In this document: piece after piece, positions 21,654 through 50,278 of the stretch
Layout: each line of letters begins with the position of its first letter
Numbering within the stretch: the stretch's first letter is position 1
NCBI GenBank assembly: GCA_022703585.1
Contig: JAKLDJ010000005.1
Coordinates: 69,353 to 133,352 of the forward strand
Length of the DNA stretch: 64,000 bases
DNA from: Candidatus Omnitrophota bacterium
GTDB lineage: Bacteria > Omnitrophota > Gorgyraeia > Zapsychrales > JAKLDJ01
Reading direction: 5' to 3'
Made by a program: the position numbers and the translations under genes
The notes under the pieces: model-generated
What the model saw: only the letters and a program-made list of their open reading frames with translations
What the model was told of the DNA's origin: nothing
Database searches by the model: none

Positions 21654-21663
21654 AACTGTTCCC

Positions 21664-32132: not shown

Positions 32133-33161
32133 TTAAGAAAACCGGATAATAATTCTTCCTGCCCGGCCCTGCTCGAGCGTTGCCAGGGCTTTATTGATTT
32201 GGGCAAACTTAAAACGGTGAGTGATCAATCTGCCAAGCGGAAATTTTCCGGCGCGGTACGCCCTTACAAAAAGAGGAAAATCCCTGTCAGGAACGGTCTC
32301 CCCGCCCCAGGTGCCGATAATTCGTTTGCCCTTGATTAGGTCAAAAGGGTTGATCGATATTTCCTGGTCATGCCTTAAATTGCCGGCAATGACCGCGGTC
32401 CCCTTGTCCCGAATCGCTTTAAAACAAGCCTCCATCCCCTCTTTTGTGCCCGAGGCCTCGAGGGCATAATCAACGCCGCCGGGGACAATTGCCTTTACGG
32501 ACGCATCAATATCTTTGCGGAAAATGAGGGCATGGGTTGCGCCCAACTTTTTAGCAAAAGAAATCTTTTCCTTTTGGGCGTCGATAGCGATTATCTTCGA
32601 ACACCCCTTTAACCGCGCGGCAAGGATAGCGCTGGCGCCGATACCTCCGGCACCAAAGATAGCAATCGTTGAGCCCTTGGATACGTTTAAAGTATTTAAA
32701 ACAATTCCCGCGCCTGTGGCCACCGCGCAGCCCAAAAGCGCCGCTTTATCCGGCGGAATCGTTTTGGGGATTTTGGTTAAACGGTTTTCGGCAATGACCG
32801 CGTGCTCGCAAAATGTGGCGATCGCTCCCGAATTAATGATTTGGTTGCCGGCTTTGTACTGAGTTCCGGCCGCATCCAAACCGCTTCCCTTAATCCACGA
32901 AAGAACGACATAATCATTCTTTTTTACTTTGCGCACCCCCTTGCCGGTTGCCACAACCACCCCTGCCCCTTCATGGCCCATCATATGCGGCAGATAACGG
33001 TCGGGGCCTTTGAAGCCTTTTATTTCATTGAGCTGGCTGCGGCACAGGCCGCTGGCAAGCACCTTGACCAAAACCTGGCCTTGGCTCAACGGCGGAATTT
33101 CAACCTCACGTATCACCAGAGGCGAATGAAGTTTATAAAGTATGGCTGCTTTTGTTTTCAT
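32133..33161 (-). CDS. Zn-dependent alcohol dehydrogenase (MDR family)
   Basis: GHEGAGVV and the Rossmann motif GAGGIGASAI. The start was moved to the internal Met (MKTKAAIL). Confidence 0.8.
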   Translation of the reverse strand: MKTKAAILYKLHSPLVIREVEIPPLSQGQVLVKVLASGLCRSQLNEIKGFKGPDRYLPHMMGHEGAGVVVATGKGVRKVKKNDYVVLSWIKGSGLDAAGTQYKAGNQIINSGAIATFCEHAVIAENRLTKIPKTIPPDKAALLGCAVATGAGIVLNTLNVSKGSTIAIFGAGGIGASAILAARLKGCSKIIAIDAQKEKISFAKKLGATHALIFRKDIDASVKAIVPGGVDYALEASGTKEGMEACFKAIRDKGTAVIAGNLRHDQEISINPFDLIKGKRIIGTWGGETVPDRDFPLFVRAYRAGKFPLGRLITHRFKFAQINKALATLEQGRAGRIIIRFS

Positions 33162-33166
33162 ACATT

Positions 33167-33826
33167 TTAATCCGCGATGAACCAAAAATAGTCCCCGGTG
33201 TAACCGACTTCACGAAACATCTTCACCCAATCATCCACATGCATCATGGTTTCGGCGGTTAAAACCCACTTTAATAAATTCTCACGCTCAGTTTCATTTC
33301 GCCAGGCATCAACCGTAATGTAACTACTGCCCCGGCATACGCGCTGAATCTCTCTGAGGGCGGTTTTAAGGCGCTCCAAGGGAAGATTGTGAATAGAATT
33401 AATCGAAATAACCAGGTCAAAGGATTTGTCCGCGTAGGGAAGTTTCTCAGCACTGGCGATTTTTAGAAACGGTTTAACCGAAGGCATGGCATGTTCTATC
33501 GCATAAGTGCTGACATCGATTCCGGCCACGGTCGCCTGCGGCATCAGCTCTTTGAAATCATGAAGCATAAATCCCTTGCCGCATCCGATATCCAGAATAG
33601 CCGCCGTCTCGGAGAGATTATAAAAATCCTTCAGCCTTTTAACCACCGGTTTCCAGCGACCGTCGTAACGGTACCCTCCGTAACCGCAGCGCCGGTCGCC
33701 GTCAAAGAAATCTTTTCCGAACTGTTTCGCTATTTTTACGATCTCCGGGGTCTTTTCCCGCGCCCGCGCGTCGTAATCCCGCACTGTCTTCGGGTGCTGG
33801 CTCAACAGATTGATTTCTTGTCCCAT
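33167..33826 (-). CDS. Class I SAM-dependent methyltransferase
   Basis: ILDIGCGKG motif I. This is a tandem paralogue of the next gene; they share the blocks FGK/REYFDGDR..GYGGY and DLVISIN. Confidence 0.75.
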   Translation of the reverse strand: MGQEINLLSQHPKTVRDYDARAREKTPEIVKIAKQFGKDFFDGDRRCGYGGYRYDGRWKPVVKRLKDFYNLSETAAILDIGCGKGFMLHDFKELMPQATVAGIDVSTYAIEHAMPSVKPFLKIASAEKLPYADKSFDLVISINSIHNLPLERLKTALREIQRVCRGSSYITVDAWRNETERENLLKWVLTAETMMHVDDWVKMFREVGYTGDYFWFIAD

Positions 33827-33841
33827 TTTCTAAGCGTCTTT

Positions 33842-34564
33842 CTATTCAGCGATAAACCACCAGTAATCACCGGTATAACCTGCTTCAGAGAATAATTTTT
33901 TCCATTCATCCGTATGCATATAGGTCAGGGCGGTCAGGTTCCATTTTAACAACAGCTCCCGTTCCTCCTCCGTACGCCAGGCGTGCACCGAAATAAAAGC
34001 ATTCTTTCGGGAGACGCGCTGGATTTCTTTTAAAGCCTGTCTGCATTCTTCTAAAGGCAAATGATCGATGGTATTGATCGAAATAACGAGGTCAAAGGAT
34101 TTGTCGGGATAAGGCAGCTGACGGGCATTGCCCACTTTAATAAAAGGCTTCATCTCGGCAAGCGCATGGTCATAGGCATATTGAGAAATATCAAGCCCTG
34201 ACACCGATAGTCCGGGTAAGAGCTTCTTAAAATCATTCAGCATAAAACCCTTGGCGCAACCCACGTCCAGAATCGACGAAGTGTTTGCAAGTTTGTAATG
34301 CTCCGATATTTTTTTAACCGTATCCGTCCAAAACCGGGGATGATAATAATATCCGCCGTATCCGTATAGCCGGTCACCGTCAAAATATTCTCGTCCAAAC
34401 TGCCGCGCTATGGACAGCATTTTATGCTCTAAGAGAATGTCGGTATTGTCCGGCTGTTTTACTTCGGATGAAAGCCAGTCGCCCCCTGCCAACCGCCGCT
34501 TGCCCCGTTCTTCAATAGGCCGTTTTGAACGGGGATAAAGATCCAGTAAATTTATTTCTGCCAT
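33842..34564 (-). CDS. Class I SAM-dependent methyltransferase (tandem paralogue)
   Basis: ILDVGCAKG motif I. The C-terminus ends ...GYTGDYWWFIAE, against ...GYTGDYFWFIAD in its neighbour. Confidence 0.75.
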   Translation of the reverse strand: MAEINLLDLYPRSKRPIEERGKRRLAGGDWLSSEVKQPDNTDILLEHKMLSIARQFGREYFDGDRLYGYGGYYYHPRFWTDTVKKISEHYKLANTSSILDVGCAKGFMLNDFKKLLPGLSVSGLDISQYAYDHALAEMKPFIKVGNARQLPYPDKSFDLVISINTIDHLPLEECRQALKEIQRVSRKNAFISVHAWRTEEERELLLKWNLTALTYMHTDEWKKLFSEAGYTGDYWWFIAE

Positions 34565-34578
34565 TTTTCCTCTTATTC

Positions 34579-36393
34579 CTATCTCGATATCGGCTTCACA
34601 ATCATATTGCTCATAAATTCATTCTGACTTAATAACGGCTCCATGTCTTCCAGAGGCCGGGCCGCGTACGAGCCGTCCTCTCTTTGACGAAAACCCATGC
34701 GCGGAATCAGTTGCTGATCCTTTGAAATCATAATCTCGCACAAAACCGGCCCTTTGCCTTTAAGCACATGGCAAAGTTTTTTAACCAGCTCACCGTGATT
34801 GCTGATTCGTACCGCTTTGATACCATAGGCCCGAGAAACCTTTTTAAAATCGGGCAGGCTCACTCCCCCCTTTTTTCCAGAGCCCACATAACGGGATGAA
34901 AAAAATCCGTCCTGGGTATGTCGAATGGCTAAATAGCCGTCATTGTTAAAAACAAATATCTTTACCGGAAGCCGGTGATGGGCAATAGTCTGTAACTCAT
35001 GAATATTAAATTGCATACTCCCGTCGCCGACAATACAGATGGTGCGCTTACGGTTATTGGCAAAACAGGCGCCGATACTTTCCGGTAGTCCGGAACCCAT
35101 GGCACCGATCCCTGCCGAGGTAATAATACGCTGACCCTGCTTAATCCGCATGCCTTGAAACGGCATATACAACCCCGTCCCGCCTCCGTCGACACAAATA
35201 ACATCATGAGCTCCCAATTCATCGGATAAGACATCCATAAGGACATAGGGATTAACAAATTTCTTTTGCCTTCCCCACTCGCGAGGCACGGCATTGTATT
35301 TTTTATAGGCTGAGCACTTCCCGGCCCAAAACTTATCGGATTTTTGCAATTTGTTTTTATTTAATCCGGATAAAACTTTATTTAAAAATAATTTGGCATC
35401 CGAGCGAATGGAAAGATCGACGCGCACGGTCCGCTTGGCTATCTCGACCGGATCGATATCCACCATGATTATTTTCGCGTCCCGGGCAAAGGCAGCGTAA
35501 TTGGTGCCGGTCAACGGAATGCTCAAATGCGATCCGATACTTAATAATAAATCACAATTTTGAACCGCCAGATTAGCCCCGCGTTGCCCGGAAATTCCCA
35601 GCCGCCCCATATACAACGGTTCTTCGGTCGGCAAAATATCGCTGGCATTCCAGGTGGAGACAAAGGGAATTTTTGTCTTTTTAATAAACTCTTTAAATTC
35701 CTGCGCCGCTCCCGCTAAGCGCACCCCGTAGCCGGCTAAGACCAGTGGCCGTTTAGATGCCGCGATAAACCGGCGGCATTGTTTTAATTGTTCCTCAGAA
35801 ACAGTTTTTCCGGCGTCCTTTTGTTTAAGCGAAGCAGGATTAAAACTTTTAAGCTTATTCGGCTCAATCATCGCCCACTGGAAATTTAAAGGAATATCGA
35901 CCCAAACCGGCCCGGGCCTCCCGGACTGTGCAATATACAACGCTTTCTGTAGCTCATATTTAATCATCCCCGGATCCTGAATCATCACCGCGTATTTTGT
36001 TAAGGGCTTGACCAGCGAAACAATATCGATCTGCTGGCTGCCTAATTGCCTTATGGGTTTATTGTGCGTGGTGTGTTCTATCCTCGCCTGCCCCGAAATA
36101 AAAATACAGGGAACGGAATCAAGCCAGGCCGCGCACAAGCCCGTAATCGCATTCGTACCTCCGGGCCCCGTGGTCACAAACGCCGCCCCCAACTGGTTAT
36201 TGACCCGGGCATAAGCCTCGGCAGCCAAAGCCGCTGCCTGTTCGTGATGGGTAAAAACCGGCATCGTCTTAGAGTTGCGGTCCGCCGAGTCGAAAAGATG
36301 AACGACCGCGCCTCCGGTCACTCCGAAGATGTGCCCGACACCTTCTTTCGCCAGAAAATCCACCACGTAATCCGAAAGTTTTATTTTAGCCAT
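34579..36393 (-). CDS. Thiamine-diphosphate enzyme, acetolactate-synthase-large-subunit-like (YerE-like?)
   Basis: 604 aa. N-terminal Pyr domain (GVTGGAVVHLFD), central domain, and a C-terminal ThDP motif (GDGSMQFNIHEL...NNDGY). Confidence 0.85.
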   Translation of the reverse strand: MAKIKLSDYVVDFLAKEGVGHIFGVTGGAVVHLFDSADRNSKTMPVFTHHEQAAALAAEAYARVNNQLGAAFVTTGPGGTNAITGLCAAWLDSVPCIFISGQARIEHTTHNKPIRQLGSQQIDIVSLVKPLTKYAVMIQDPGMIKYELQKALYIAQSGRPGPVWVDIPLNFQWAMIEPNKLKSFNPASLKQKDAGKTVSEEQLKQCRRFIAASKRPLVLAGYGVRLAGAAQEFKEFIKKTKIPFVSTWNASDILPTEEPLYMGRLGISGQRGANLAVQNCDLLLSIGSHLSIPLTGTNYAAFARDAKIIMVDIDPVEIAKRTVRVDLSIRSDAKLFLNKVLSGLNKNKLQKSDKFWAGKCSAYKKYNAVPREWGRQKKFVNPYVLMDVLSDELGAHDVICVDGGGTGLYMPFQGMRIKQGQRIITSAGIGAMGSGLPESIGACFANNRKRTICIVGDGSMQFNIHELQTIAHHRLPVKIFVFNNDGYLAIRHTQDGFFSSRYVGSGKKGGVSLPDFKKVSRAYGIKAVRISNHGELVKKLCHVLKGKGPVLCEIMISKDQQLIPRMGFRQREDGSYAARPLEDMEPLLSQNEFMSNMIVKPISR

Positions 36394-36416
36394 ATCTTAA
36401 ATTTATTTTTGTGAAC

Positions 36417-37436
36417 TTATTGCCTCTTTTCCCTCTGCTTGTCAACAAGACTAATAGCAACCTCGACGATCATGTCTTCCTGCCCGCCTACAGCCTTACG
36501 CCGGCCTAATTCAAAAAAGACATCTTTGGCATCAACGCCGTATTGCAGAGAAACCCGTTCTACATGCCGGACAAAACCGGAAAAAACCCCGGCTAAGCCG
36601 CTGACAATGCTGATCGATTTTATTCCCTTGGCGCTTGTAAATAATTCTTTGGCTGCCATATCCGCCAGATCCAGGATTTTATAAAGATCGATTCCCGTCT
36701 TATAACCCATTTTATTTAATATCGCTACGACCGCTTCCATTTGGGTGTTGCCGGCACCGGCGCCAAATCCCAAAATGCAGCAATCTAAAATAGTTGCCCC
36801 GGCCTCAATCGCAGCAACGGAATTCGCAATTGCCAGCCCGAGATTATTGTGGGCATGAAACCCCACCGGTATTTTTAGCGCACCCGCTAAAGCAGCTATC
36901 CTCTCCTTGACATCGGCGGTTATATACGCCCCGGCCGAATCCATGATAATAACGCCGTCCACGTCATACGATTGCATTTTAAGGCACTCGTCGATTAATA
37001 TTTCTTTGGAAACCATGTGGGTCATCATCAAGTTGCCGTAGGCCAGCTTCCCTTTTTCTTTGACATAATTAATATGCCTTTGGGTGGTGTCGGCTTCCGT
37101 GCAATGCGATGACACACAAACCACATCAACACCCTGCTCAATGGCAGGGCCTAAATCTTTATTGATCGTCCCGAATCCGGGAATGATAAAAACTCCTAAT
37201 TTTGAACGGCTCAATTTTCCGCGGGCACACGCGATCATTTCTTGATCCGTCAGCAGGCTTTCGCCGACCTGCAGAGATGAAGCCCCCAGGCCGTTACCGT
37301 GGCCAACCATAACAATCGGGACTCCGGCGGTCTCAGCCGCCGCACAATACGATTCTATCTGGCGTCTATCCAACTGATGGCGGATGGCATGACTGCCGTC
37401 GCGCAACGAAGAATCAATAATGAAGACATCGGTCAT
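36417..37436 (-). CDS. 4-hydroxy-2-oxovalerate aldolase (DmpG/BphI/MhpE family)
   Basis: IIDSSLRDGSHAIRHQ, HGNGLG, SHCTEAD, HAHNNLGLAIANS and VGGQEDMIVEVA closely track DmpG. The start is set at the internal Met so that it overlaps the DmpF-like stop in an ATGA junction. Confidence 0.85.
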   Translation of the reverse strand: MTDVFIIDSSLRDGSHAIRHQLDRRQIESYCAAAETAGVPIVMVGHGNGLGASSLQVGESLLTDQEMIACARGKLSRSKLGVFIIPGFGTINKDLGPAIEQGVDVVCVSSHCTEADTTQRHINYVKEKGKLAYGNLMMTHMVSKEILIDECLKMQSYDVDGVIIMDSAGAYITADVKERIAALAGALKIPVGFHAHNNLGLAIANSVAAIEAGATILDCCILGFGAGAGNTQMEAVVAILNKMGYKTGIDLYKILDLADMAAKELFTSAKGIKSISIVSGLAGVFSGFVRHVERVSLQYGVDAKDVFFELGRRKAVGGQEDMIVEVAISLVDKQREKRQ

Positions 37437-38344
37437 AAGTGTTTTGCCCCTACCAACGCATCCTGCATCCGACAGGCATAGCGCTCTGCCGTTCTCACAG
37501 CAGCACAATTGATAATATCCAGGTTTCCCGCGTAGGCGGGAAGATAATCGCCCAAGCCCCGCACCTTAACCATGATCACGATGCGGTTATTTTCATAAAC
37601 CGGCGGGACAATGACCGAATACCCGGGCACATACGCTTGGATTGCTCTTTCCATCTCAAAAACGGCAGCCCTTAATTTCTCAATATCCGGCTTCGGCATT
37701 TTAGCGGACAAAGTCGTTTGCATATCAATACAAGGATCCGCGGGATTGAGAATCAAAATAACTTTGACATTATCGCATCGGGTAAAAGAACGCAGCCCCT
37801 CCTCGGTATTTTCGATGTATTCGTCGATATTGATCCGAGTCGCCATGCCCGCACTCCGCGAGGCGATAGAGGAAACAACCTCGATATACTCAATATCTTT
37901 ACACGTCCGGGAAAGGACAAAGGCGAGCGGAATCGATGCCTGACCGCCGCAGCTGACCATATTGACATTGCGATTATCGAGGGCATCATCAAGATTGATG
38001 GCCGGAACGATCATCTTGCCTATTTTGGACGGCGTCATGTCGATAACGGTTTTATCGGTTTCTTTTAATAACGCCCAATGCTGCAGGTGGTCCTTGGCCG
38101 AGGTCGCGTCAAACACAATCCGGCAGCAGTCAGGGTTATCAAGAATTTCGTTTATCCCCTTATCCGAGACCGCCACTCCCTTTTCTTTAGCTTTAAGCAT
38201 ACCCTTGGAATGGCAATTTCTCCCCACAAAACGCGTGCACTCCAAAACATCCGAGCGCAATATTTTTATCAGCAAATCCGTACCGATATTGCCGCTGCCT
38301 AAAATTGCGACTTTAATTTTTTCAGGGTACTGCGCCATAAACAA
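37433..38344 (-). CDS. Acetaldehyde dehydrogenase (acetylating), DmpF/MhpF family
   Basis: KVAILGSGNIGTDLLIKILRS and the catalytic-Cys region VSCGGQASIP. It is co-translationally coupled to the DmpG-like gene. Confidence 0.85.
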   Translation of the reverse strand: MFMAQYPEKIKVAILGSGNIGTDLLIKILRSDVLECTRFVGRNCHSKGMLKAKEKGVAVSDKGINEILDNPDCCRIVFDATSAKDHLQHWALLKETDKTVIDMTPSKIGKMIVPAINLDDALDNRNVNMVSCGGQASIPLAFVLSRTCKDIEYIEVVSSIASRSAGMATRINIDEYIENTEEGLRSFTRCDNVKVILILNPADPCIDMQTTLSAKMPKPDIEKLRAAVFEMERAIQAYVPGYSVIVPPVYENNRIVIMVKVRGLGDYLPAYAGNLDIINCAAVRTAERYACRMQDALVGAKHL

Positions 38345-38345
38345 T

Positions 38346-39044
38346 TTACCTTTTTTTCAAACCCACGCCGACCGCGAACAAATAATGCGCCATCGGATAA
38401 TAGCCGGTATGCACGACCTCGTCATTCATCGAGAATATAAAACCGTTTACAAAATATTTTTCTAATAGGGCCTTTAAATCCTTATGGTCCTTCTGATTAA
38501 TATGCTGGATACGGCTTCTTTCGGTAGCATATTTATCGGCGGTTTTATTGGGAGTGCCGATGATACAAATGCCGTCATCTTTGAGGCAACGGCAGCTATT
38601 TTCCATAAAAGGCTTTTCCAATTCCGGGTCCAGATGCTCGATGACATCAATGGAGAAGACACCGTCAAATTTGCGGTTAACCGGCGCCTGACAGATATCG
38701 ACTTTTTTAAATTCGATATTTTTAATCTTTTTTAAGCGCTGGCTATTGCCCACCATCAACCGGTCATCAACATCGATACCCAAACAATAGTGCGCATCCT
38801 GGGCAACCAAGGGAATGCCAAAGCCATCGCCGCAACCCACCTCCAGAATATCTTTTTTTCCTTGAAACATCTTGGCGCAAAATTTATACCGCGCCAAAAC
38901 AAAGCACATATGTTTGGGGTCATTAAGCAAGCTATAGGATGTCCAGGGGCCGAGCGAAATACACTCGGTATCAAACTGATAACTGCTGGCAATCTTAAAC
39001 GCCTCTTTTTGGGTCAATTTTTTCAACGGAATCTCCTTTTTCAT
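38346..39044 (-). CDS. Class I SAM-dependent methyltransferase
   Basis: ILEVGCGDGFG motif I. Confidence 0.75.
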   Translation of the reverse strand: MKKEIPLKKLTQKEAFKIASSYQFDTECISLGPWTSYSLLNDPKHMCFVLARYKFCAKMFQGKKDILEVGCGDGFGIPLVAQDAHYCLGIDVDDRLMVGNSQRLKKIKNIEFKKVDICQAPVNRKFDGVFSIDVIEHLDPELEKPFMENSCRCLKDDGICIIGTPNKTADKYATERSRIQHINQKDHKDLKALLEKYFVNGFIFSMNDEVVHTGYYPMAHYLFAVGVGLKKR

Positions 39045-39045
39045 T

Positions 39046-39864: not shown

Positions 39865-39881
39865 AAATCCCCGTGCCTCGG

Positions 39882-40943: not shown

Positions 40944-40970
40944 CAGACTCGCCCGCTTTGAATTTAAAAT

Positions 40971-41480
40971 TTATAGCCGAAATAGCTTTAGCGTCTCTTT
41001 CATCCAAATCGCATTATCGCGAAAATGCTGCGCCGTCACCAGCGTCCCGTCGACCACCACCGGCTCGTCGATATAACTAGCACCGGCATTGATCAAATCA
41101 TCCTTGCAGCCTTTATAGCAGGTGGCCTTCTTTCCTTTCATAATCCCTGCCGAAACCAACACCCACGGCCCGTGACAAATACTCGCAATAGGCTTTTTAA
41201 GGTCATGCATGGCCTTGGTGAATTTTAAGATCTCAGGAACCTGTCGCACCCGATCCGGCGCTTCGTGCCCGCCGGGAATCACCAATAGATCAAACTGTTT
41301 CGCATCCAGAGCAGAAAAATTAATCGTCGGCTTTGCGGATATTCCGTGTTTACCACTCACCACTCCGTCCGTTGATGTACACACATCCACCGAAAATCCC
41401 GCCTCCTGCAAACGGTAATAGGGATAAAAGAATTCGGTATCTTCAAAGCCGGGCCCGGTAATAATAACCGCTCGATTCAT
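40971..41480 (-). CDS. DJ-1/PfpI family protein
   Basis: 169 aa. The nucleophile-elbow motif ASICHGPWVL is present. Confidence 0.8.
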   Translation of the reverse strand: MNRAVIITGPGFEDTEFFYPYYRLQEAGFSVDVCTSTDGVVSGKHGISAKPTINFSALDAKQFDLLVIPGGHEAPDRVRQVPEILKFTKAMHDLKKPIASICHGPWVLVSAGIMKGKKATCYKGCKDDLINAGASYIDEPVVVDGTLVTAQHFRDNAIWMKETLKLFRL

Positions 41481-43514: not shown

Positions 43515-44338
43515 CTATCTTTCCTGACAACAATCGCTTCTAAAACACCACTCGTGCGTACGCCGGAAGATTCTTTAATGTCTTCCCGCCCCAGCACATT
43601 GCCCGCCTTAAAGACAACCTTGCCCTGTCCGTCGATAATTCTTCCCTTCAAGATGCACATCATGTCCCAGCGGAACCGGCGCGACAGATCCTTTAGCGAT
43701 TGATGGTTGTTATAACGCATAAATTGAATCCGGCAGCGGCCAAACCTTTTTTGGGTATCAAAGTGAGAGTTCGAGTCGATAAACGAAACGTAGTCGTACT
43801 GCTGCAGGTCAGAATATATGTATTCATCAGTTTCATAGCCGGTCTGTTCGCGCCCGTAATCATCCTTTAAACGCACTAAATCGCGTTTGTTAACCGGCGT
43901 TTCAATCTCGAGAATAAAAGTACCCCGGGAAGATAATGATCGCGTGGAATGAAAGACCCCTTTGCCGAATAATACCCCCTGGGCAGGGCGCCTTTGCATT
44001 TTTTCACCAAGCGTCAGGCATAAGGCATTTCCCGACAGGACGATGATTGATGTCTTTTTGCCTTGGTGACAGTGCATCGAAGTCCGGCACCCTTTTTTGA
44101 TATTTAGGATCCATGCGGAAACAAATTTATTGGCAAAAAGAAGATACTCATAACCCCACGGTTTTCGCACTACCGCCCGGGAAAAATCATGGAGGTCGTT
44201 ACCCTTGGGAGCCACATTTGTCTTGATCTCAGCAAGCGCGCGGCGGTCAAACGTGCAGGGAATCAATTTTTTATTGATCCGAAAAGACAAGGTATTTTTT
44301 AATCGACTCACGCTACTTTTTTCGGCCATTTTAATCAA
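43511..44338 (-). CDS. Cupin-domain protein
   Basis: KPWGYEYLL...SMHCHQGKK...GVFH resembles a cupin_2 metal site. It overlaps the B12-rSAM start by 4 nt. Confidence 0.55.
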   Translation of the reverse strand: MIKMAEKSSVSRLKNTLSFRINKKLIPCTFDRRALAEIKTNVAPKGNDLHDFSRAVVRKPWGYEYLLFANKFVSAWILNIKKGCRTSMHCHQGKKTSIIVLSGNALCLTLGEKMQRRPAQGVLFGKGVFHSTRSLSSRGTFILEIETPVNKRDLVRLKDDYGREQTGYETDEYIYSDLQQYDYVSFIDSNSHFDTQKRFGRCRIQFMRYNNHQSLKDLSRRFRWDMMCILKGRIIDGQGKVVFKAGNVLGREDIKESSGVRTSGVLEAIVVRKDR

Positions 44339-44370
44339 AACGATTTTACGTTTGTTGCCCTATGCCAACT

Positions 44371-45363
44371 TTAAGGTTTATGAATATATTCCAGCGGCTC
44401 TTTTTTAATCCGTTCCCACCTTCCCTCCACCCAATCGATCACATCGCCCAATCCTTCTTCGACAGAAACAGCGGGCTTCCAGCCAAAGGCCTTTCTCGCC
44501 TTAGTCGAATCGATGACATACGCCGCATCCTGGCCCAGTCGTTCGCCTGCCGCTTGGGTTGCCTTTTTAAAATCAACCCCCATCATCTGGCAAATCGTCT
44601 TAACGACATCCTTAACCGCGATGCCGCTCTTTGGCGACAGATGATAGATCTCTCCGTTTTTTCCTTTTTCCATTGCTAGCTTTTCGCCTTTGGAAATATC
44701 ACGAATATGAATATAGGATTTGACCGCCTTGCCGCCGCCGTGAAGATAAATCTTTTTTCCCATCTTAATAGAAATCACGGTACGGGGAATAATTTTAAAA
44801 AGCTGCTGGTGCGCACCGTAAACATTGGTCGAGCGGATTGTGACCAGCGGAAAATTATAATTCTTAACCAACGTAAACAGGAATAGATCGCCGGCCGCCT
44901 TGGACGCGGCATACGGCGTGCTGGGATTGACGGAATAATCTTCCTTGACCACCCCGCGGCAGGTCCCGTAAACTTCAGGGCTTGAGATATGCACATAGCG
45001 GCGCAAATATTTGGCTTTCTTTAAATGATCTCCCAGGCGGGACAGCGCGACGACGTTGGTCATAAACCACTGCTCGGGATGCTCCCAACTGGGCGCGACC
45101 TCGCTTTGCGCGGCAAAATTAACGATATATTCGGGTTTAAAAGAATCGAGCAGTTTTCGGATCCCGTCCATATCTTTATTGAGATCCATTTGATAGAAGT
45201 TGAATCTTCCGGTCTGGCGGCGTTTATACGGCAGAAACAGATCGCTTTTTTCCGGCGAGCGGCTGATGCCGATAATCTCGTTTTCTTTTTCATCGAGTAA
45301 TAGATCGATAAAGTCGCTTCCCGAAAATGAATTGCTGCCGATAACAACAATGCGCTTGGACAT
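44371..45363 (-). CDS. NAD-dependent NDP-sugar 4,6-dehydratase/epimerase (extended SDR)
   Basis: 330 aa. ISSPEVYG, the YAASKAAGD catalytic motif and an RmlB-like C-terminus. The N-terminal Gly motif is degenerate (GSNSFSGS). Confidence 0.7.
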   Translation of the reverse strand: MSKRIVVIGSNSFSGSDFIDLLLDEKENEIIGISRSPEKSDLFLPYKRRQTGRFNFYQMDLNKDMDGIRKLLDSFKPEYIVNFAAQSEVAPSWEHPEQWFMTNVVALSRLGDHLKKAKYLRRYVHISSPEVYGTCRGVVKEDYSVNPSTPYAASKAAGDLFLFTLVKNYNFPLVTIRSTNVYGAHQQLFKIIPRTVISIKMGKKIYLHGGGKAVKSYIHIRDISKGEKLAMEKGKNGEIYHLSPKSGIAVKDVVKTICQMMGVDFKKATQAAGERLGQDAAYVIDSTKARKAFGWKPAVSVEEGLGDVIDWVEGRWERIKKEPLEYIHKP

Positions 45364-45378
45364 TTTTTCCTTTTTAAT

Positions 45379-46455
45379 CTAGAACGGCCCGCGAAACGAT
45401 AGATCCGGAACGTCATGCGGGTTGACTTCGCTTTGCGCTTCTTTTAAAAGCGTTTTAAGCTCATTAGCATCTTTTCCTAAAAGTTCCCAGGCGGCTTGCA
45501 CGATCGCACGGTATCCGGGATAAAAATCCTCCGTTAAAGACGGTGCTGACGGCATGGGAATTTCGGGTAAGGCAATGCGCCGCGGCGCTTTCTTTAAACT
45601 TTTCCACGCCCCTTCGGTCGCACGCGCCGCGATCTCCGCACTTACCCCGAACGACAGCCAACCGCAATCGGCAACGATTAAATGGCCGGTCTTTTTAACC
45701 GATTGGCTGACGGTCTCAAAATCCAGCGGCCGGATACTGCGCAAGTCAATGACCTCGGCCGTGATCCCTTTTTTCTCTAGGATCTGAGCCGCCCGAATCG
45801 CTTCGATCGTCATATGCGAAACGGCAGCAATAGTCACCATATCCCCTTTGCGGACAACACTCGCTTTTCCCAAAGGAATACGATAAGGGTCCTGGTGAAC
45901 ATGGCCTTCGATATCGTAAAGCCAGCGGTGCTCAATGGAGATAACCGGATTATCATCTTCGATAGCGGAGACAAGCAGGCCCTTGGCATCGTGCGGTGTT
46001 GCCGGCATAATCACTTTTAAACCCGGAATATGCGCGAACAATGCCTGCAGGCTTTGGGAATGCTGCGCCCCCTGGCCCCAGCCGCGGCCCACGACCATAC
46101 GGATAACCAAAGGAATATTCATCTGCCCGCCGAACATAAAATGCCATTTGGCGGCATTGTTAATAATCTGGTCCAAGGAAAGCAATGCAAAATCCACCCG
46201 TTGGTGAGTAAGAATCGGCCGAAATCCGCGCAGCGCCGCGCCGATACAAATTCCGGTCATCCCGTTTTCACAAACCGGCATATCCATGACCCGGCCGGAA
46301 CCATATTTTTCTTTTAACCCTAAGGTCGAGCCAAAGATTCCTTTTGGATCGGGCACGCCTTCCCCAATAATAAAGACAGCCGGGTCTTTGGCCATGCATT
46401 GATCAATGGCCTCGCGGAGTGCTTGCGAATATTTTATTTGTCGTTCTACGGTCAT
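45379..46455 (-). CDS. ThDP-dependent dehydrogenase E1 component, beta subunit (transketolase C-terminal-like)
   Basis: 358 aa with typical E1-beta blocks (FIIGEGV, MPVCENGMTGICIGAALRGFRPI, LKVIMPATPHDAKGLL). Confidence 0.85.
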   Translation of the reverse strand: MTVERQIKYSQALREAIDQCMAKDPAVFIIGEGVPDPKGIFGSTLGLKEKYGSGRVMDMPVCENGMTGICIGAALRGFRPILTHQRVDFALLSLDQIINNAAKWHFMFGGQMNIPLVIRMVVGRGWGQGAQHSQSLQALFAHIPGLKVIMPATPHDAKGLLVSAIEDDNPVISIEHRWLYDIEGHVHQDPYRIPLGKASVVRKGDMVTIAAVSHMTIEAIRAAQILEKKGITAEVIDLRSIRPLDFETVSQSVKKTGHLIVADCGWLSFGVSAEIAARATEGAWKSLKKAPRRIALPEIPMPSAPSLTEDFYPGYRAIVQAAWELLGKDANELKTLLKEAQSEVNPHDVPDLSFRGPF

Positions 46456-46461
46456 ATTGAT

Positions 46462-47427
46462 TTATAAGGCATAAACATCGTTTAGAGAAACACCCTTGGC
46501 AAAAGGCGCAGCCTGCGCCAAGGTAACGGCCGTATCAATTTCTTTTTGAATCTGCGTTTCCATCCCGGTGATTTCGGCCGGCTTGATCACCTTGTTTAAA
46601 AGGGCGTATTTCTTAAACCGGTCGATGGGGCATTTCTTTTGCCAGAGTTTAAACTCGGCCTCATCGCGATAACCGATATGATTGTCGTAATTCGGGCCGC
46701 AATGCTCGCGCCAGCGGTAGGTTAAGAATTCGATCAAAGCCGGCCCGCGCCCTGCGCGGACAGCATCGATCATTTCTTTTGATACCTCGTAAACTTTTCC
46801 GCAATCATTCCCGTCGGCTCGAAACGAACGGATCCCGTAGCCTTTGGCCAGAGAGGCAATGGAGCGCTTGGGCTGCCGCTCGGCAATCGGCGTATACACC
46901 GAATAAAGATTATTCTCGCAGACAAAAACAATAGGCAAGTTTTTTAAAACCGCAAAGTTAACCGATTCGTGGAATGCCCCTTCTTCGACGGCCGCGTCTC
47001 CCAAGAAAGCGACCGTCACGGTTTTGTTGTTTTTCATCTTTTCCGCCCAGGCCACACCTGTCGCCACCGGAATCGTTCCTCCGACAATAGGCGTTGAACC
47101 TAAAAAATTTACGGACAGATCGATCAAATGCATCGAACCGCCGCGGCCCCGGGAGCAGCCTGTTTCTTTGCCGTACAATTCGGCAAATAATTTTTCCAGA
47201 TTTCCGCCCTTGGCCAAATAATGCCCGTGCGAACGGTGATTGCTTAAAACCAGGTCTTCATTCTTTAAATTGGCGCTTACCCCCGCCGCGACCGCCTCCT
47301 GGCCGATGCATAAATGCACCGGGCAGCGCATTTGTTGCTGGGGATAGAGCTCAACAATTCGCTCCTCCACCATCCGGATGCGCAACATTTGGTAAAAAAG
47401 AGATTGTAAGATTTTTTTGGTGATCAT
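46462..47427 (-). CDS. ThDP-dependent dehydrogenase E1 component, alpha subunit
   Basis: 321 aa. ThDP motif GDAAVEEGAFHESVNFA...NN. YRWREH is typical of E1-alpha. Confidence 0.85.
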   Translation of the reverse strand: MITKKILQSLFYQMLRIRMVEERIVELYPQQQMRCPVHLCIGQEAVAAGVSANLKNEDLVLSNHRSHGHYLAKGGNLEKLFAELYGKETGCSRGRGGSMHLIDLSVNFLGSTPIVGGTIPVATGVAWAEKMKNNKTVTVAFLGDAAVEEGAFHESVNFAVLKNLPIVFVCENNLYSVYTPIAERQPKRSIASLAKGYGIRSFRADGNDCGKVYEVSKEMIDAVRAGRGPALIEFLTYRWREHCGPNYDNHIGYRDEAEFKLWQKKCPIDRFKKYALLNKVIKPAEITGMETQIQKEIDTAVTLAQAAPFAKGVSLNDVYAL

Positions 47428-48434
47428 TTAAGGTTTAAAGCCTGCATGGTTTTAATGTTGTAATAACGGATATCGTCCATCGGGTTTGGAATGAGGCCTT
47501 TCTCAAATGCCTTCTTTAAGTCACCCACTGCCTGCTCGATCGTGCACCGAGGGCTAAATCCCAGCTCCCGGGAAATTTTCTCCGAAGAAATATGATAGGA
47601 GCGGTTATCGTCCGTGGGCTTGCGCGTGATCTGGATGCTTCCGTTGCCGATCACTTTCTTGACGGTTTCGGCGATCTCGTTGACGGTATAATTTTGGTAA
47701 CCGGCGTTAAAAATTTTCCCCGCGATTTTCTCTTTTGGGTATTCCAGTGATTGCACGTATAGATCGGTCACGTCGTCAATATGAATATTGGGCCGCTTCT
47801 GATCCCCACCAAAGACGGTGATCTTTCCGGCGTTAATGGCGTGATTGGTTAAAATATTAACGGTCAGGTCCAGCCGCAACCGCGGCGAATAGCCGCACAC
47901 CGTCGCCGGCCGTAAAATAAGCACGGTAAAATCATTTGATTGCTGTTCGAGTAAATATTTTTCGCACAAAGCCTTATATTTTGAATAATCGGTGAGCGGC
48001 TCTAAGGCCAGATCTTCGGTAACATTGGATTCTTTTTTAACCCCGTACACGCTGGAGCTGGAGGCAAAAATAAATCTTTTTACCTTTGCCTTTTTGGCAA
48101 TCGTAACCAGCGGCAGGAAGGCGTCGTAATTGATCGACTTGCCTAAATCCGGATTTAATTCATAGCTGGGGTCGTTGGAAATGCAAGCCAGATGAATGAC
48201 CGCGTCAATGCCCTTCATTTCTTTTGTGAGAAGTTTGGTATCGCGGATATCGCCCTTGACCTGCCTGAGATTGGGATTATCTTTTACGCTATCCAAAACG
48301 TGTTCCCCGTACATATAAAGATCGATCACCGTAACCTTGTAATCGCGGGCAAGAAGTTTTGGGATTAAAACAGCGCCGACATACCCGGCGCCTCCGGTGA
48401 CCAAAATATTTTTCATATCGTCAGGTTCTTTCAC
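47424..48434 (-). CDS. NAD-dependent epimerase/dehydratase (extended SDR)
   Basis: ILVTGGAGYVGAV and YSKYK. Confidence 0.8.
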   Translation of the reverse strand: MKEPDDMKNILVTGGAGYVGAVLIPKLLARDYKVTVIDLYMYGEHVLDSVKDNPNLRQVKGDIRDTKLLTKEMKGIDAVIHLACISNDPSYELNPDLGKSINYDAFLPLVTIAKKAKVKRFIFASSSSVYGVKKESNVTEDLALEPLTDYSKYKALCEKYLLEQQSNDFTVLILRPATVCGYSPRLRLDLTVNILTNHAINAGKITVFGGDQKRPNIHIDDVTDLYVQSLEYPKEKIAGKIFNAGYQNYTVNEIAETVKKVIGNGSIQITRKPTDDNRSYHISSEKISRELGFSPRCTIEQAVGDLKKAFEKGLIPNPMDDIRYYNIKTMQALNLK

Positions 48435-49374
48435 GGGATGATGCCTTTTTGTTTAAAAGACGCGCACACTCCCGGGCCACTGTCTTAGGCGAAATATAAT
48501 TCATGCAAAAGCGGTCGAATTTGCAGATCGGGGAATAGCACGGCGCGAAAGGACAATTCAACGTCGAGGCAACAATGTGGATATTGTCAATGCCCGTCAT
48601 GCGCAAATAATTGGTCGGCCCGTAGAGTGAAATGACCTTTTTACCCAGCGCCTGCGCCAGAATCTGGCCCAGCGAATCCGAGGTCACGATCACGCGGCAA
48701 CTTTCGATCCAGTCGATGTATTTGGCGACATTTTTATGCCCCTGCTGCCAGCTAAGCGAATAATCCTTTTTTAAGATCCCCTCAAGCTCTTTCCAGTATT
48801 TCATCGGCCAGGCCTTGGTCGGCCATTTGGGCCCGACCGCAAAATTAAATCCGATATCGTATTTCTCCCGGTTTCCCCTTTTACGCCCCAAAACCGGGCT
48901 CTGGCCTTTCCAACGGCCGCCTAAGGTTTCGAAAAGCAATTCAAAAGCGTTTTTGTGAATATAACGATGATTCTCCTGGCCGGTCAAAAGATATTGGGTG
49001 GAGCGTTTGTAGGTGGCGATGTCATAGATCCGGCTGTTAAAATAAAATCCGTATTTTTTCTTAGCCTTGATCTGCGCCAGATAGGTGCAAATCCCGATAT
49101 CCTTTTCCAGATTAACCAGAATATCGAATGAACGGCGGGTAATCTTCTTTAGGGTCTCGGGCCCGAAGATCAATATTTCGTCGATATAAGGATTGTCCTT
49201 TAACAGCGGACTCCCCTTAAAAGAAGTAATCCAGGTGACGCGGTCATTTTTGTAGAGATGCAAAATCGAAGTGCAGATCAAGACATCGCCAAGGCTGATA
49301 GTGGTCGAGATTTCCCGGTCGAGGAATTCGGAAAAACCTGTTTTTATAACGAGGACTTTCCTGCGGTTGTGCAT
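48421..49374 (-). CDS. Glycosyltransferase family 9 (heptosyltransferase-like)
   Basis: The track ORF starts inside the upstream gene. The internal ATG (MHNRRKVLVIKTGFSEFLD...) at 49374 abuts the rSAM stop. The GT9-typical start 'KVLVIK..G..GD' and a C-terminal GT-B half are present. Confidence 0.7.
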   Translation of the reverse strand: MHNRRKVLVIKTGFSEFLDREISTTISLGDVLICTSILHLYKNDRVTWITSFKGSPLLKDNPYIDEILIFGPETLKKITRRSFDILVNLEKDIGICTYLAQIKAKKKYGFYFNSRIYDIATYKRSTQYLLTGQENHRYIHKNAFELLFETLGGRWKGQSPVLGRKRGNREKYDIGFNFAVGPKWPTKAWPMKYWKELEGILKKDYSLSWQQGHKNVAKYIDWIESCRVIVTSDSLGQILAQALGKKVISLYGPTNYLRMTGIDNIHIVASTLNCPFAPCYSPICKFDRFCMNYISPKTVARECARLLNKKASSRERT

Positions 49375-49375
49375 G

Positions 49376-50278
49376 TTATTTCTGCTCCTTGTCGGAGGAA
49401 TCAAGCCGGATATCGACCGACGTATAACCGTATTCCTGCAAGTGATTCGTCTTGATCTTAACATCACAGGGGCTGCAGGTGCCATACGCGGCGCAGCCCC
49501 GATACAGGTGCTCAAGTTTTAAATCGGGATCCAAAAGATTGCCCAAAGCCATTTCTTTTCGATGGGCGTAGAGGTCCGAATGACAGCGGTAAACCGTCGC
49601 ATCAATTCCAACGGGAAGCACCGTATTGCGGCACAGGACGTGAGCGCGGACCACCTTGCCCTCACAGGCATCGGGATAACGGTATTTTAAATAGTCGCGG
49701 CCGTTATATTTTCCTAAAAATTCTTTGGTGCGAAATTCAACCCCTTGTTTTTTGGCGTACTCGCGGATTTCAGCGATCAATTCCGGATAGCCGGGATGAT
49801 CAATATGATAAAGGCCGATACTTAGGATTTGCTGAAATTCTTTGATGCGGTCGATCAATACTTTATAGTCGTTTTGTCCCTTATGAAAACTGACGCGTAT
49901 CGTCGGATACGGGGCGGGGCGTTTGTTCCAATCCAGCGTGCGCAGTTTCTTGAATTTCTCAACAGTTAAACTCGGCGGCAGGGCGGTTAAAATATCCATT
50001 TTGTGGTGAACATTGTCCAGGATCTCCCAAATGCCGTCATAAAGAAACGGCTCTCCTCCCTGGAGGGTCAACGGGATCCCCTGGGGCAATTGAAGGCGAT
50101 TAAGCGCCTCGATCCATTGGCCGGGCTTTAGTTCCGCGGCGCCTTTAATATTAATAAACTTCTCATTATAATTAGTAATACAATAGGGACAGGAAAGAAA
50201 ACAGCGGTTGGTCAGATAAATCCCCAGATAATCTGTGATGGCGGGAACAATGATGGGTTGAAGTTCTGCTTTTAGCAT
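49376..50278 (-). CDS. Radical SAM protein with C-terminal Cys-rich (SPASM/twitch-like) region
   Basis: CFLSCPYC is a CxxxCxxC motif. The C-terminal cysteines are CAAYGTCSPC. 300 aa. Confidence 0.75.
   Translation of the reverse strand: MLKAELQPIIVPAITDYLGIYLTNRCFLSCPYCITNYNEKFINIKGAAELKPGQWIEALNRLQLPQGIPLTLQGGEPFLYDGIWEILDNVHHKMDILTALPPSLTVEKFKKLRTLDWNKRPAPYPTIRVSFHKGQNDYKVLIDRIKEFQQILSIGLYHIDHPGYPELIAEIREYAKKQGVEFRTKEFLGKYNGRDYLKYRYPDACEGKVVRAHVLCRNTVLPVGIDATVYRCHSDLYAHRKEMALGNLLDPDLKLEHLYRGCAAYGTCSPCDVKIKTNHLQEYGYTSVDIRLDSSDKEQK

Follow-up and report, generated by a model that had tools for sequence, protein, structure and literature searches.

A gene cluster in Candidatus Omnitrophota that may encode the synthesis and transfer of a carbon-branched, methylated surface sugar

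Why would a gene cluster for a glycan encode an acetolactate-synthase-like enzyme, the two subunits of a pyruvate-dehydrogenase-like E1 enzyme, and an aldolase-dehydrogenase pair? We considered this question for a 64-kb stretch of DNA ("the window") from a metagenome-assembled genome of Candidatus Omnitrophota, whose source is anaerobic-digester metagenomes. Within positions 32133-50278, the window contains 18 consecutive open reading frames (ORFs) on the minus strand, which we assigned to families by profile search with Pfam and NCBIfam. (All coordinates are in the numbering of the window, and the entire cluster is on the minus strand.) Our reading of these sequences is that the operon probably makes a methylated sugar with a branched carbon skeleton and passes it to an extracytoplasmic glycosylation machinery. 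A preliminary description of this region had proposed a tailored surface sugar whose carbon branches are built by thiamine diphosphate (ThDP) enzymes, and what we found fits: one of the enzymes is YerE-like, the E1 subunits have the expected context, and there are no catabolic partners. All 18 ORFs are present, and Pfam and NCBIfam agree with the families that were named in that description. It counted four class I methyltransferases in the range, and we find three; the fourth (20916-21653) lies downstream.

The genes that carry most of the argument encode ThDP enzymes, an aldolase-dehydrogenase pair, and short-chain dehydrogenases/reductases (SDRs) that act on nucleoside diphosphate (NDP) sugars:

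34579..36393, minus strand: YerE-like ThDP-dependent lyase with a fold like that of acetohydroxyacid synthase (AHAS) (Pfam TPP_enzyme_N/M/C; PDB matches)
36417..37436, minus strand: DmpG, 4-hydroxy-2-oxovalerate aldolase of the DmpG/BphI/ErwI type (TIGR03217, score 364, cut-off 286)
37433..38338, minus strand: DmpF, acylating acetaldehyde dehydrogenase of the DmpF/BphJ/ErwJ type (TIGR03215, score 369, cut-off 282)
44371..45363, minus strand: RmlB-like NDP-sugar SDR, candidate 4,6-dehydratase (TIGR01181, 202 bits, cut-off 365)
45379..46455, minus strand: E1 beta (Pfam Transket_pyr and Transketolase_C; NF006667, 325 bits)
46462..47427, minus strand: E1 alpha, ThDP-dependent, of the alpha-KADH2 (alpha-keto acid dehydrogenase-2) type (Pfam E1_dh, 234.8 bits)
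47424..48434, minus strand: extended SDR with the motif SSSSVYG, candidate sugar-nucleotide C4-dehydrogenase/epimerase (best PDB match 6vo6/6vo8)

What is the acetolactate-synthase-like protein (34579-36393)? Pfam finds all three domains (TPP_enzyme_N, TPP_enzyme_M, and TPP_enzyme_C), and the catalytic glutamate (E51) and the GDG...N motif for ThDP (G456-D457-G458 and N484) are invariant in 24 of 24 orthologues. In a search against all solved structures, the best match was 8rph (458 bits, 38% identity), followed by 5ahk (292 bits), which we take to be PpYerE (the literature on the code 5AHK gave nothing relevant). True AHAS proteins scored 248 bits or less, and the score against the equivalog model for AHAS is 404, below the cut-off of 538. 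The best match, 8rph, is JanthE, which has been termed a "YerE-like enzyme" (2025 paper), and the YerE-like proteins with solved structures are PpYerE and JanthE (review PMC12247030). Since the protein is closer to JanthE than to any AHAS, we classify it, from its sequence, as a YerE-like ThDP lyase. We rejected the alternative of a true AHAS (ilvB) because of the score below the cut-off and the closer match to JanthE, and because a small subunit is lacking. In common with YerE/YerF (yersiniose A, Yersinia pseudotuberculosis), with JanthE, and with PpYerE, the protein has the three-domain AHAS-like fold, the catalytic glutamate, and the ThDP motif. JanthE has a CDG motif, whereas the protein from the window keeps GDG.

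From genomes and metagenomes, we collected at least 165 related loci, whose ORFs we then clustered. (The metagenome matches listed are mostly distant, at 41-50% identity.) The close clade, with at least 53% identity to the YerE-like protein, has 10 loci, and the distant group has 155; among the metagenome matches listed, the close clade is under-represented. Among the matches listed (165 loci), the most frequent neighbors were NDP-sugar SDRs (78 loci), DegT-type proteins (70), and a 258-amino-acid nucleotidyltransferase (65), followed by two reductase SDRs (47 and 46), NeuB-like proteins (32 and 29), and an HpcH/HpaI aldolase (27). Judging from their families, these neighbors comprise genes for forming 3,6-dideoxy-4-ketohexoses together with enzymes that are able to make extended 2-oxo acids. 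The context that has been described for acyl-branched sugars of lipopolysaccharide (LPS) matches such a set (PMC9306805; review PMC12247030). In the window as well, the YerE-like gene sits among genes for keto sugars, as two NDP-sugar SDR genes are in the operon. We propose that the YerE-like enzyme attaches an acyl branch to a keto sugar. The preliminary description had also proposed an enzyme of the YerE type, and both the higher scores of JanthE and 5ahk and the presence of the wider family in clusters for NDP-4-keto sugars bear this out.

What would the YerE-like enzyme attach? The DmpF gene overlaps the DmpG gene by 4 bp, the end of the DmpG gene is 23 bp from the YerE-like gene, and the gap between a methyltransferase gene and the DmpF gene is 7 bp. 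The order DmpF, DmpG, YerE-like recurs in 8 other loci from several phyla (L004, L009, L010, L013, L039, L084, L088, and L091). In Pectobacterium atrosepticum, the related enzyme ErwE takes 4-hydroxy-2-oxopentanoate instead of pyruvate, and a BphI/BphJ-like aldolase-dehydrogenase pair adjoins ErwE (Steitz et al. 2022, PMC9306805). In the scheme proposed for that organism, acetyl-CoA and pyruvate are converted to the donor, ErwE couples the donor to a 4-keto sugar, and reduction yields erwiniose (PMC9306805). By analogy, we propose that DmpG and DmpF are part of the pathway and supply the donor for the ThDP enzyme. YerE uses pyruvate to form a two-carbon branch, whereas the adjoining DmpF and DmpG predict a four-carbon hydroxy-acyl donor. 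Given the precedent of erwiniose, the YerE-like enzyme probably installs a C4 branch, not a C2 branch. In other words, the earlier idea of branching by ThDP enzymes stands, and the two-carbon length that it gave for the branches made by such enzymes probably does not apply to the YerE-like step.

Like the erwiniose pathway (ErwE, ErwF, ErwI, and ErwJ), the cluster has DmpG/BphI-type and DmpF/BphJ-type enzymes beside a YerE-like enzyme, a reductase nearby, and a glycan context. (This likeness is one of gene families and gene order.) Unlike the erwiniose genes, the window has no cytidylyltransferase and no DegT-type 3-dehydrase, and the orthologous clusters carry genes for activating heptose. 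Beyond the erwiniose set, the window adds the E1 subunits, a B12-binding radical S-adenosylmethionine (radical-SAM) protein, three methyltransferases, a cupin, a DJ-1 protein, and an Ldh_2 protein. Of the genes for CDP-3,6-dideoxy-4-keto-D-glucose, neither an NTP_transferase nor a DegT protein is found in the 64-kb window, so the product should not be erwiniose itself.

Other clusters appear to obtain the donor in other ways. In two sister clusters from the same clade (L086 and L087), a class I/II aminotransferase is upstream of the YerE-like gene instead of DmpF and DmpG, and in another sister cluster (L003), a dehydratase of the altronate/galactarate type is upstream. These alternative makers of 2-oxo acids, all upstream of the YerE-like gene, fit a modular "donor-supply slot."

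The second ThDP enzyme is the E1 pair. Two NDP-sugar SDR genes enclose the two subunits; one of them overlaps the pair by 4 bp, and the other is 15 bp away. The closest solved relatives of E1 alpha are mitochondrial-type E1 alpha subunits of pyruvate dehydrogenase (PDH; 163 bits), and its score against TIGR03182 is 315, below the cut-off of 394. The 64-kb window contains no genes for E2, E3, or lipoyl, 2-oxoacid_dh, or Pyr_redox proteins, and E2 and E3 were likewise not found in L004, L086, L088, or L171-L174. To avoid circularity, four orthologues of E1 alpha (56-61% identity; L171-L174) were sampled via E1 alpha itself, rather than via the YerE-like gene. All four are in sugar cassettes, and none of the four is with E2 or E3. 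These four cassettes have both SDRs, E1 beta, a methyltransferase of the MT219/MT240 type, a zinc-dependent alcohol dehydrogenase (Zn-ADH), and a B12 radical-SAM protein. (E1 beta of L171 was not called as a gene and was found with tblastn; in L171 and L174, the Zn-ADH and the B12 radical-SAM protein were in part assigned by Pfam only.) The window, L171 (Chloroflexota), and L173 (an archaeon) share an identical order: SDR, E1 alpha, E1 beta, SDR. YerE-like and E1-type enzymes also occur together in L004, L010, L039, L086, and L088. Overall, the absence of E2 and E3 and the placement among sugar SDR genes in the orthologous loci agree with the earlier suggestion that this E1 is of the sugar-branching type.

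E1 enzymes of the alpha-KADH2 class carry out C2-branching of deoxy-keto sugars in the antibiotics of actinomycetes, and split transketolases are predicted to do so (PMC12247030). Like the aldgamycin enzyme and KbDH-alpha/beta (kibdelomycin), the pair in the window lacks E2 and E3 and is among genes for tailoring NDP-sugars, reduction, and methylation. (The likeness to the E1 enzymes of the KbDH, aldgamycin, and AviB systems is one of gene context.) E1-type sugar-branching enzymes belong mainly to specialized antimicrobial metabolites (PMC12247030), whereas our cassettes are of the surface-glycan type and are from Omnitrophota, Chloroflexota, Ratteibacteria, Planctomycetota, Syntrophales, and archaea. 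Also unlike the antibiotic clusters, our E1 pairs are beside genes for activating heptose, and several of the loci have a YerE-like enzyme as well.

A split transketolase replaces or joins the E1 pair in L087 (1-1677), L003 (2331-4113), and L173 (13647-15374). The 13 predicted sugar-branching transketolases are all from Streptomyces (PMC12247030); the split transketolases that we found include some in archaea such as Methanospirillum. The archaeal cluster L003 (Methanospirillum sp., GCA_053578395.1; 1-21812) encodes a YerE-like enzyme, methyltransferases, a Zn-ADH, E1 beta, and a split transketolase, along with a transaldolase-like protein, NeuB, and a cytidylyltransferase of the CMP-sugar type. 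This combination hints at a branched sugar of the ulosonic-acid type.

Which sugar would be branched? With moderate confidence, we predict a nucleotide-heptose, not a 3,6-dideoxyhexose. The 64-kb window has no sugar nucleotidyltransferase, GmhA, HldE, HddA/HddC, or GmhB. We infer a heptose from the HldE and GmhA genes in the orthologous cassettes, from counts of loci in the two groups, from the match of one SDR to 6vo6, and from the GT9-family gene in the operon. HldE-like proteins and/or GmhA head the orthologous cassettes in L004, L010, L086, L088, L169, L171, L172, and L173. In the close clade, 4 of the 10 loci have heptose genes and just one has genes for a CDP-hexose (L086, with a weak match to a nucleotidyltransferase), while in the distant group, heptose-like genes are in 16 of 155 loci and CDP-hexose genes are in 84 of 155.

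The extended SDR (47424-48434) matches 6vo6/6vo8 at 160.7 bits, and the next PDB match is at 99.6 bits. Its motif (SSSSVYG) lacks the glutamate of dehydratases, and its orthologues are beside HldE in L171, L172, and L173. We presume that 6vo6 is Cj1427, the heptose C4-dehydrogenase of Campylobacter (the literature on the code 6VO6 gave nothing relevant). In the other SDR (44371-45363), whose best PDB matches are dTDP-glucose 4,6-dehydratases, YAASK is present, and SSPEVYG keeps the glutamate and has proline at the position of the aspartate. The acid/base motif is T-D-E in RmlB and T-S-E in GDP-mannose dehydratase. The function of Cj1427 as a C4-dehydrogenase for the capsular heptose of Campylobacter jejuni has been described (PMC10680097). 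Like the heptose modification system of C. jejuni, our cluster has one C4-dehydrogenase-like SDR and one dehydratase-like SDR, and its orthologous clusters have genes for activating heptose. C. jejuni epimerizes and reduces the 4-keto heptose, whereas here, we would expect the ThDP enzymes to capture the ketone by adding carbon nucleophiles to it. The HldE-like protein of the orthologous clusters is bifunctional, with a kinase domain and a CTP_transf_like nucleotidyltransferase domain. A bifunctional HldE belongs to the ADP-heptose route, while C. jejuni uses the GDP route. In the literature that we searched, we found nothing relevant that links YerE-like enzymes to heptose.

The remaining genes of the 18 encode candidate tailoring enzymes, a transferase, and several proteins whose roles are harder to predict:

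32133..33161, minus strand: Zn-ADH, candidate reductase for a branch carbonyl (kept in 6/6 close loci and in L171-L174)
33167..33826, minus strand: class I SAM methyltransferase (co-conserved with Zn-ADH and either E1 alpha/beta or split transketolase)
33842..34564, minus strand: class I SAM methyltransferase (directly 3' of the YerE-like gene in L003, L004, and L088 too)
38346..39026, minus strand: class I SAM methyltransferase (orthologues at 81% in L004 and 65% in L173)
39046..39864, minus strand: classical SDR, candidate ketoreductase for the branch, in the role of YerF/ErwF (Pfam adh_short)
39882..40943, minus strand: Ldh_2 2-hydroxyacid dehydrogenase (Pfam, 356.8 bits; below every NCBIfam equivalog cut-off)
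40971..41480, minus strand: DJ-1/PfpI protein (Pfam, 173 bits; TIGR01382, 166.8, cut-off 139)
41571..43514, minus strand: B12-binding radical-SAM protein, 647 amino acids, candidate C-methyltransferase (Pfam Radical_SAM; B12-binding sub-threshold)
43511..44311, minus strand: metal-type cupin, 266 amino acids, phosphomannose isomerase-like (homologues, AlphaFold, and Foldseek; no Pfam match above threshold)
48421..49374, minus strand: GT9-like (heptosyltransferase family) transferase (Pfam Glyco_transf_9, 49.6 bits, cut-off 22)
49376..50278, minus strand: small radical-SAM protein, 300 amino acids, CxxxCxxC motif (Pfam Radical_SAM, 35.5 bits)

An SDR of 263-275 amino acids adjoins the YerE-like gene or is one gene away in L003, L004, L086, L087, and L088. 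The 647-amino-acid B12 radical-SAM protein has weak matches to NCBIfam models for class B methylases, and genes for B12 radical-SAM proteins recur across the related clusters; a search of PDB sequences with this protein gave generic matches only. The same kind of search found no relatives for the small radical-SAM protein, the GT9-like protein, or the cupin.

The cupin that was named in the preliminary description corresponds to an unannotated ORF (43511-44311), and its homologues, its AlphaFold model, and Foldseek establish the assignment. By Pfam, it has just sub-threshold matches to Cupin_2 and MannoseP_isomer, and its homologues carry these domains. The mean pLDDT of the AlphaFold model is 88, and the Foldseek matches are cupins and bicupins. 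The protein has an HxH...H metal motif (H80, H82, and H121 are invariant) and a weak similarity to phosphomannose isomerase.

The cupin seems to be tied to the YerE-like enzyme. They are together in 18 sampled loci, and 15 of the 18 also have DJ-1. In 9 of the 18 loci, the cupin is fused to the N terminus of the YerE-like protein in a single ORF (for example, 854 amino acids in L104), which suggests that the step of the cupin comes right before or right after that of the ThDP enzyme. In L007 and L017, orthologues of Ldh_2 are neighbors of the YerE-like gene, DJ-1, and the cupin. In L100, L104, and L108, DJ-1 and the cupin-ThDP fusion are accompanied by the small radical-SAM and GT9-like proteins. 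In our model, the cupin, DJ-1/PfpI, Ldh_2, and small radical-SAM proteins form a second recurrent module, which probably serves to provide the ketone that accepts the branch or, alternatively, a second 2-oxo acid as donor. As to their individual roles, we can just guess: the cupin might relocate or epimerize a ketone on the sugar, or tautomerize a 2-oxo acid, and DJ-1 and Ldh_2 could turn a 2-oxoaldehyde into a 2-oxo acid. DmpG and E1 alpha are both absent from all 18 cupin loci, and the cupin is absent from all 8 DmpG loci. The window is the only one of the sampled loci to join both types of cluster around a single YerE-like gene.

Some of the cupin loci have further features. L104 (1-21541; also L100 and L108) has a 'type II' cluster that is rich in radical-SAM genes. 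It encodes two NDP-sugar 6-dehydrogenases, four radical-SAM proteins that do not bind B12, a GT9-like protein, a HAD protein, DJ-1, the 854-amino-acid cupin-ThDP fusion, a dehydratase of the altronate/galactarate type, a methyltransferase, an SDR, and three B12 radical-SAM proteins. In L169 (10001-15812), an insertion element of the rve family breaks the gene for the cupin-ThDP fusion. The same locus has an intact second YerE-like gene with DJ-1 directly 3', and GmhA, HAD, and HldE genes are upstream.

Where would the sugar go? The run of genes continues past 32133 with junctions that are equally tight, to at least 18196:

31406..32122, minus strand: GT2 glycosyltransferase that in size and type is like polyprenyl-phosphate sugar synthases (clear Pfam GT2 domain)
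30346..31406, minus strand: two paralogous small membrane proteins, 172 and 180 amino acids, candidate flippase pair (hydropathy)
28125..30344, minus strand: YfhO-like protein, 739 amino acids, about 13 transmembrane segments, candidate GT-C transferase (Pfam YfhO, 27.1 bits, which is below the cut-off of 28.5)
18196..28128, minus strand: rest of the operon, with a TPR protein, a 711-amino-acid membrane protein, a GT2, a 595-amino-acid membrane protein, a FemAB/GNAT-like protein, a methyltransferase, and a 907-amino-acid YfhO-like protein

The first GT2 (31406..32122) weakly matches the models for PpgS, ArnC, and dolichyl-phosphate hexose transferases, all below their cut-offs. Its orthologues in L006 (68%) and L007 (59%) are directly 3' of the YerE-like gene. 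The two small membrane proteins have 3 predicted transmembrane segments each and a soluble tail. They have no Pfam matches, and their orthologues are in L006 and L007. The first YfhO-like protein (28125..30344) has an orthologue in L006, and the second YfhO-like protein matches at 30.8 bits, which is above the cut-off of 28.5. In L006 and L007, the genes immediately after the YerE-like gene encode a GT2, a pair of small membrane proteins, and a YfhO-like protein. The order in the window (first a small GT2, then the paired small membrane proteins, and then a large polytopic protein like YfhO) resembles the ArnC/ArnEF/ArnT, GtrB/GtrA/GtrC, and CsbB/GtcA/YfhO systems. Unlike in those systems, the matches here are weak or below the cut-offs, and the small proteins do not fit any known family.

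Are these genes really one operon? All of the plausible genes of the 64-kb window are on the minus strand, so shared direction is not informative, and the evidence for an operon is the spacing of the junctions. Between the RmlB-like SDR and the second GT2, the junctions measure -8 to +90 bp (using public gene calls), and the five junctions upstream of the RmlB-like SDR measure -14 to +15 bp (using ORF coordinates). (Judging from its translation, the most probable start of the GT9-like gene is 49374 instead of 49515.) Thus, the preliminary description of an 18-kb co-directional run was right about the short or overlapping junctions; the direction of the genes does not count as evidence, and the run is longer. 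We conclude that 32133-50278 is the front, biosynthetic half of an operon of about 32 kb, which begins near 50278 and extends to about 18196. How far it reaches downstream is uncertain, as apbE (17126-18199, minus strand) overlaps the last YfhO-like gene by 4 bp. The ApbE flavin transferase may be co-transcribed with the glycan operon, and it has no obvious functional link to it.

The upstream limit is likely marked by one predicted feature:

50357..50376, minus strand: terminator-like hairpin (8 pairs, 6 of them G-C, and a T-rich tail; a consensus match only)

This hairpin is in the 229-bp gap between moaC and the first gene of the cluster, and it is the only strong intergenic one. No intergenic gap inside the cluster is big enough for a terminator. 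Scans for promoters and terminators gave counts that were not clearly higher than in shuffled controls, and scans for Rfam families and tRNAs gave no matches inside the cluster. A terminator that separates the ThDP genes from the sugar genes, which the preliminary description had raised along with a promoter, has no room within the cluster. Because the combination of genes is kept in other genomes, it is not a chance arrangement.

Putting these observations together, we can suggest a pathway. The starting point would be a nucleotide sugar, most probably D-glycero-D-manno-heptose that is activated by genes outside the window, and the two extended SDRs would convert it to a keto sugar. DmpF would convert acetyl-CoA to acetaldehyde, and DmpG would combine this with pyruvate to give 4-hydroxy-2-oxopentanoate (we take the direction from the erwiniose precedent). 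The YerE-like enzyme would decarboxylate 4-hydroxy-2-oxopentanoate and add the resulting acyl-anion equivalent to the ketone of the sugar, which would yield a tertiary alcohol with a four-carbon 3-hydroxybutanoyl branch. The E1 pair, working without E2 or E3, would decarboxylate pyruvate and place a two-carbon acetyl branch on a sugar ketone, which may belong to the same sugar or to another. Reduction of the branch carbonyls would fall to the classical SDR and the Zn-ADH, the class I methyltransferases would O-methylate the sugar, and the B12 radical-SAM protein would C-methylate it. The GT9-like transferase would use the nucleotide sugar, and/or a GT2 would load the sugar onto polyprenyl phosphate; the paired small membrane proteins would flip it, and the YfhO-like GT-C proteins would transfer it to an acceptor at the surface. 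Because the window has two keto-forming SDRs and two sets of GT2 and GT-C proteins, two sugars are favored over one. L004 has both ThDP systems and just one transfer set.

Several points weigh against this pathway. Every step is deduced from homology and synteny. The heptose genes are absent from the window, and the identity of the sugar depends on the orthologous clusters and the similarity of one SDR. The other SDR scores below the cut-off for the dehydratase (202 vs. 365) and has S-P-E instead of T-D-E. The identities of 5ahk as PpYerE and of 6vo6 as Cj1427 are presumed. The assignments of the GT2 and YfhO proteins are weak. Finally, there are two possible donor modules for a single YerE-like gene, and the cupin, DJ-1, and Ldh_2 are unexplained.

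Could the ThDP enzymes, the aldolase, and the dehydrogenases instead form a catabolic operon that merely adjoins the glycan genes? The candidates would be the oxidation of acetoin or pyruvate, or the meta-cleavage of aromatics. DmpG and DmpF do score as true equivalogs of meta-cleavage enzymes, E1 beta passes the cut-off for the PDH E1 beta subfamily, and some relatives of E1 alpha are named 'acetoin:DCPIP oxidoreductase' in databases. But the window lacks 2-oxopent-4-enoate hydratase, 4-oxalocrotonate decarboxylase and tautomerase, extradiol dioxygenase, E2, E3, and any lipoyl gene. Also, DmpF and DmpG are wedged between a methyltransferase gene (7 bp away) and the YerE-like gene (23 bp away), the E1 pair is wedged between the two NDP-sugar SDR genes, and this interleaving with sugar genes is kept across phyla. 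Given the missing partners, including E2 and E3, the lack of room for internal terminators, and the conserved interleaving, we reject this explanation and consider it very improbable. (The adjacent catabolic operon was also what the preliminary description had named as the case against it; the window shows no partners for meta-cleavage or acetoin catabolism.) Three narrower readings were rejected as well, because their NCBIfam matches are far below the cut-offs: coenzyme M or sulfolactate (from Ldh_2 with a ThDP enzyme), hopanoids (HpnA/B/J), and arsenosugars.

Another possibility is that the carbon-carbon bond-forming enzymes make a free hydroxy or oxo acid, or an acyloin, that is attached to the glycan as an ester, amide, ether, or ketal, so that the ring has no branch. 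Ldh_2 and DJ-1 are inside the cluster, a FemAB/GNAT-like transferase is downstream, and the keto sugar is itself just a predicted intermediate, so this has some appeal. However, the nearest characterized relatives of the ThDP enzyme are sugar-branching lyases that accept ketones, its family is embedded in gene sets for 4-keto sugars, and sugar SDR genes flank the E1 pair on both sides in several phyla, so we think that this is unlikely. We give even less credence to the idea that the sugar itself is the ThDP donor. Here, the radical-SAM protein, DJ-1 (as a glyoxalase-like enzyme), and Ldh_2 would equip a heptose or hepturonate with an exocyclic 2-oxoaldehyde or 2-oxo acid, and decarboxylation and extension would then give a higher-carbon sugar with an elongated chain. 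This would make sense of why the YerE-like gene is accompanied by the cupin, DJ-1, and Ldh_2 (with the cupin fused in 9 of 18 loci) and of the 'type II' fusion clusters, with their two NDP-sugar 6-dehydrogenases and many radical-SAM genes. But this chemistry has no precedent, the DJ-1 protein scores as a generic one of the PfpI/YhbO type, and DmpF and DmpG with a YerE-like enzyme already have a simple published explanation (PMC9306805). A branched sugar that is built by the ThDP enzymes is still the reading that we prefer.

Elsewhere in the window, we noticed several features outside the operon. A c-di-GMP-I riboswitch (RF01051; 2151-2243, minus strand; 57 bits, gathering score 35) is upstream of a gene of the subtilase family (1229-1984). 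At 53489-55981 (minus strand), a gene for a membrane O-acyltransferase of the MBOAT family is followed by one for a 332-amino-acid protein; this could be a pair for modifying the envelope, and it is upstream of the DPBB, DUF4412, moeA, and moaC genes. Overlapping genes for a HEPN-domain protein and a minimal nucleotidyltransferase (57039-58009, minus strand) resemble a toxin-antitoxin pair. From 58000 to 64000, the G+C content falls from about 0.48 to about 0.41. An 825-amino-acid DNA methylase (60136-62613) overlaps a gene for a 422-amino-acid protein (62610-63878), which could be a restriction-modification or mobile segment.

How much of this is new? Since the scheme follows the published logic for acyl-branched sugars, the system is not one of a new kind. 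Four features set it apart from what is known. The base sugar is likely a heptose, without a 3-dehydrase. A YerE-like enzyme and an E1-type enzyme are in one operon, and they had not previously been described together. Judging from gene content, E1- and transketolase-type enzymes are in surface-glycan-like cassettes of uncultured bacteria and archaea. And there are cupin-ThDP fusions with companion radical-SAM genes. Part of this finding may already be cataloged: as cited in PMC12247030, an in-silico survey (Krug et al. 2024) reportedly lists over 200 YerE-like clusters and about 120 E1-type clusters.

A more speculative idea, which we would bet against but which seems worth stating, is that the cassette (HldE/GmhA, two SDRs, an E1 pair or split transketolase, a methyltransferase, a Zn-ADH, and a B12 radical-SAM protein) makes undescribed C-branched heptoses with C- and O-methyl groups. 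In the window, this cassette would have merged with the DmpF/DmpG/YerE-like module and the cupin/DJ-1/Ldh_2 module, so that one heptose would receive both a C2 and a C4 branch. The cassette is found in Omnitrophota, Chloroflexota, Ratteibacteria, Planctomycetota, Syntrophales, Methanospirillum, and DPANN-like archaea. If this idea is true, then the product would be the first doubly ThDP-branched sugar, and this would be the first physiological case of branching by alpha-KADH2- or transketolase-type enzymes in surface glycans, outside of the antibiotics of actinomycetes.

The branching of keto sugars by ThDP enzymes is known from a few LPS sugars (yersiniose, erwiniose, and caryophyllose) and from the antibiotics of actinomycetes. 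YerE-like enzymes act mainly on cell-envelope sugars, and E1- and transketolase-type enzymes are mainly for antibiotics (PMC12247030). The operon and its relatives place all three classes of ThDP enzymes in surface-glycan cassettes, apparently acting on heptose, in phyla with cell surfaces that chemists have yet to explore. From this, we predict new sugar structures. This placement also gives many candidates for carboligases that accept ketones and have built-in modules for supplying the donor, which may be useful for the biocatalysis of chiral tertiary alcohols. And for Omnitrophota, and for organisms like those of the candidate phyla radiation (CPR) and DPANN, it offers a testable hypothesis that links genes to structures in the chemistry of the envelope.

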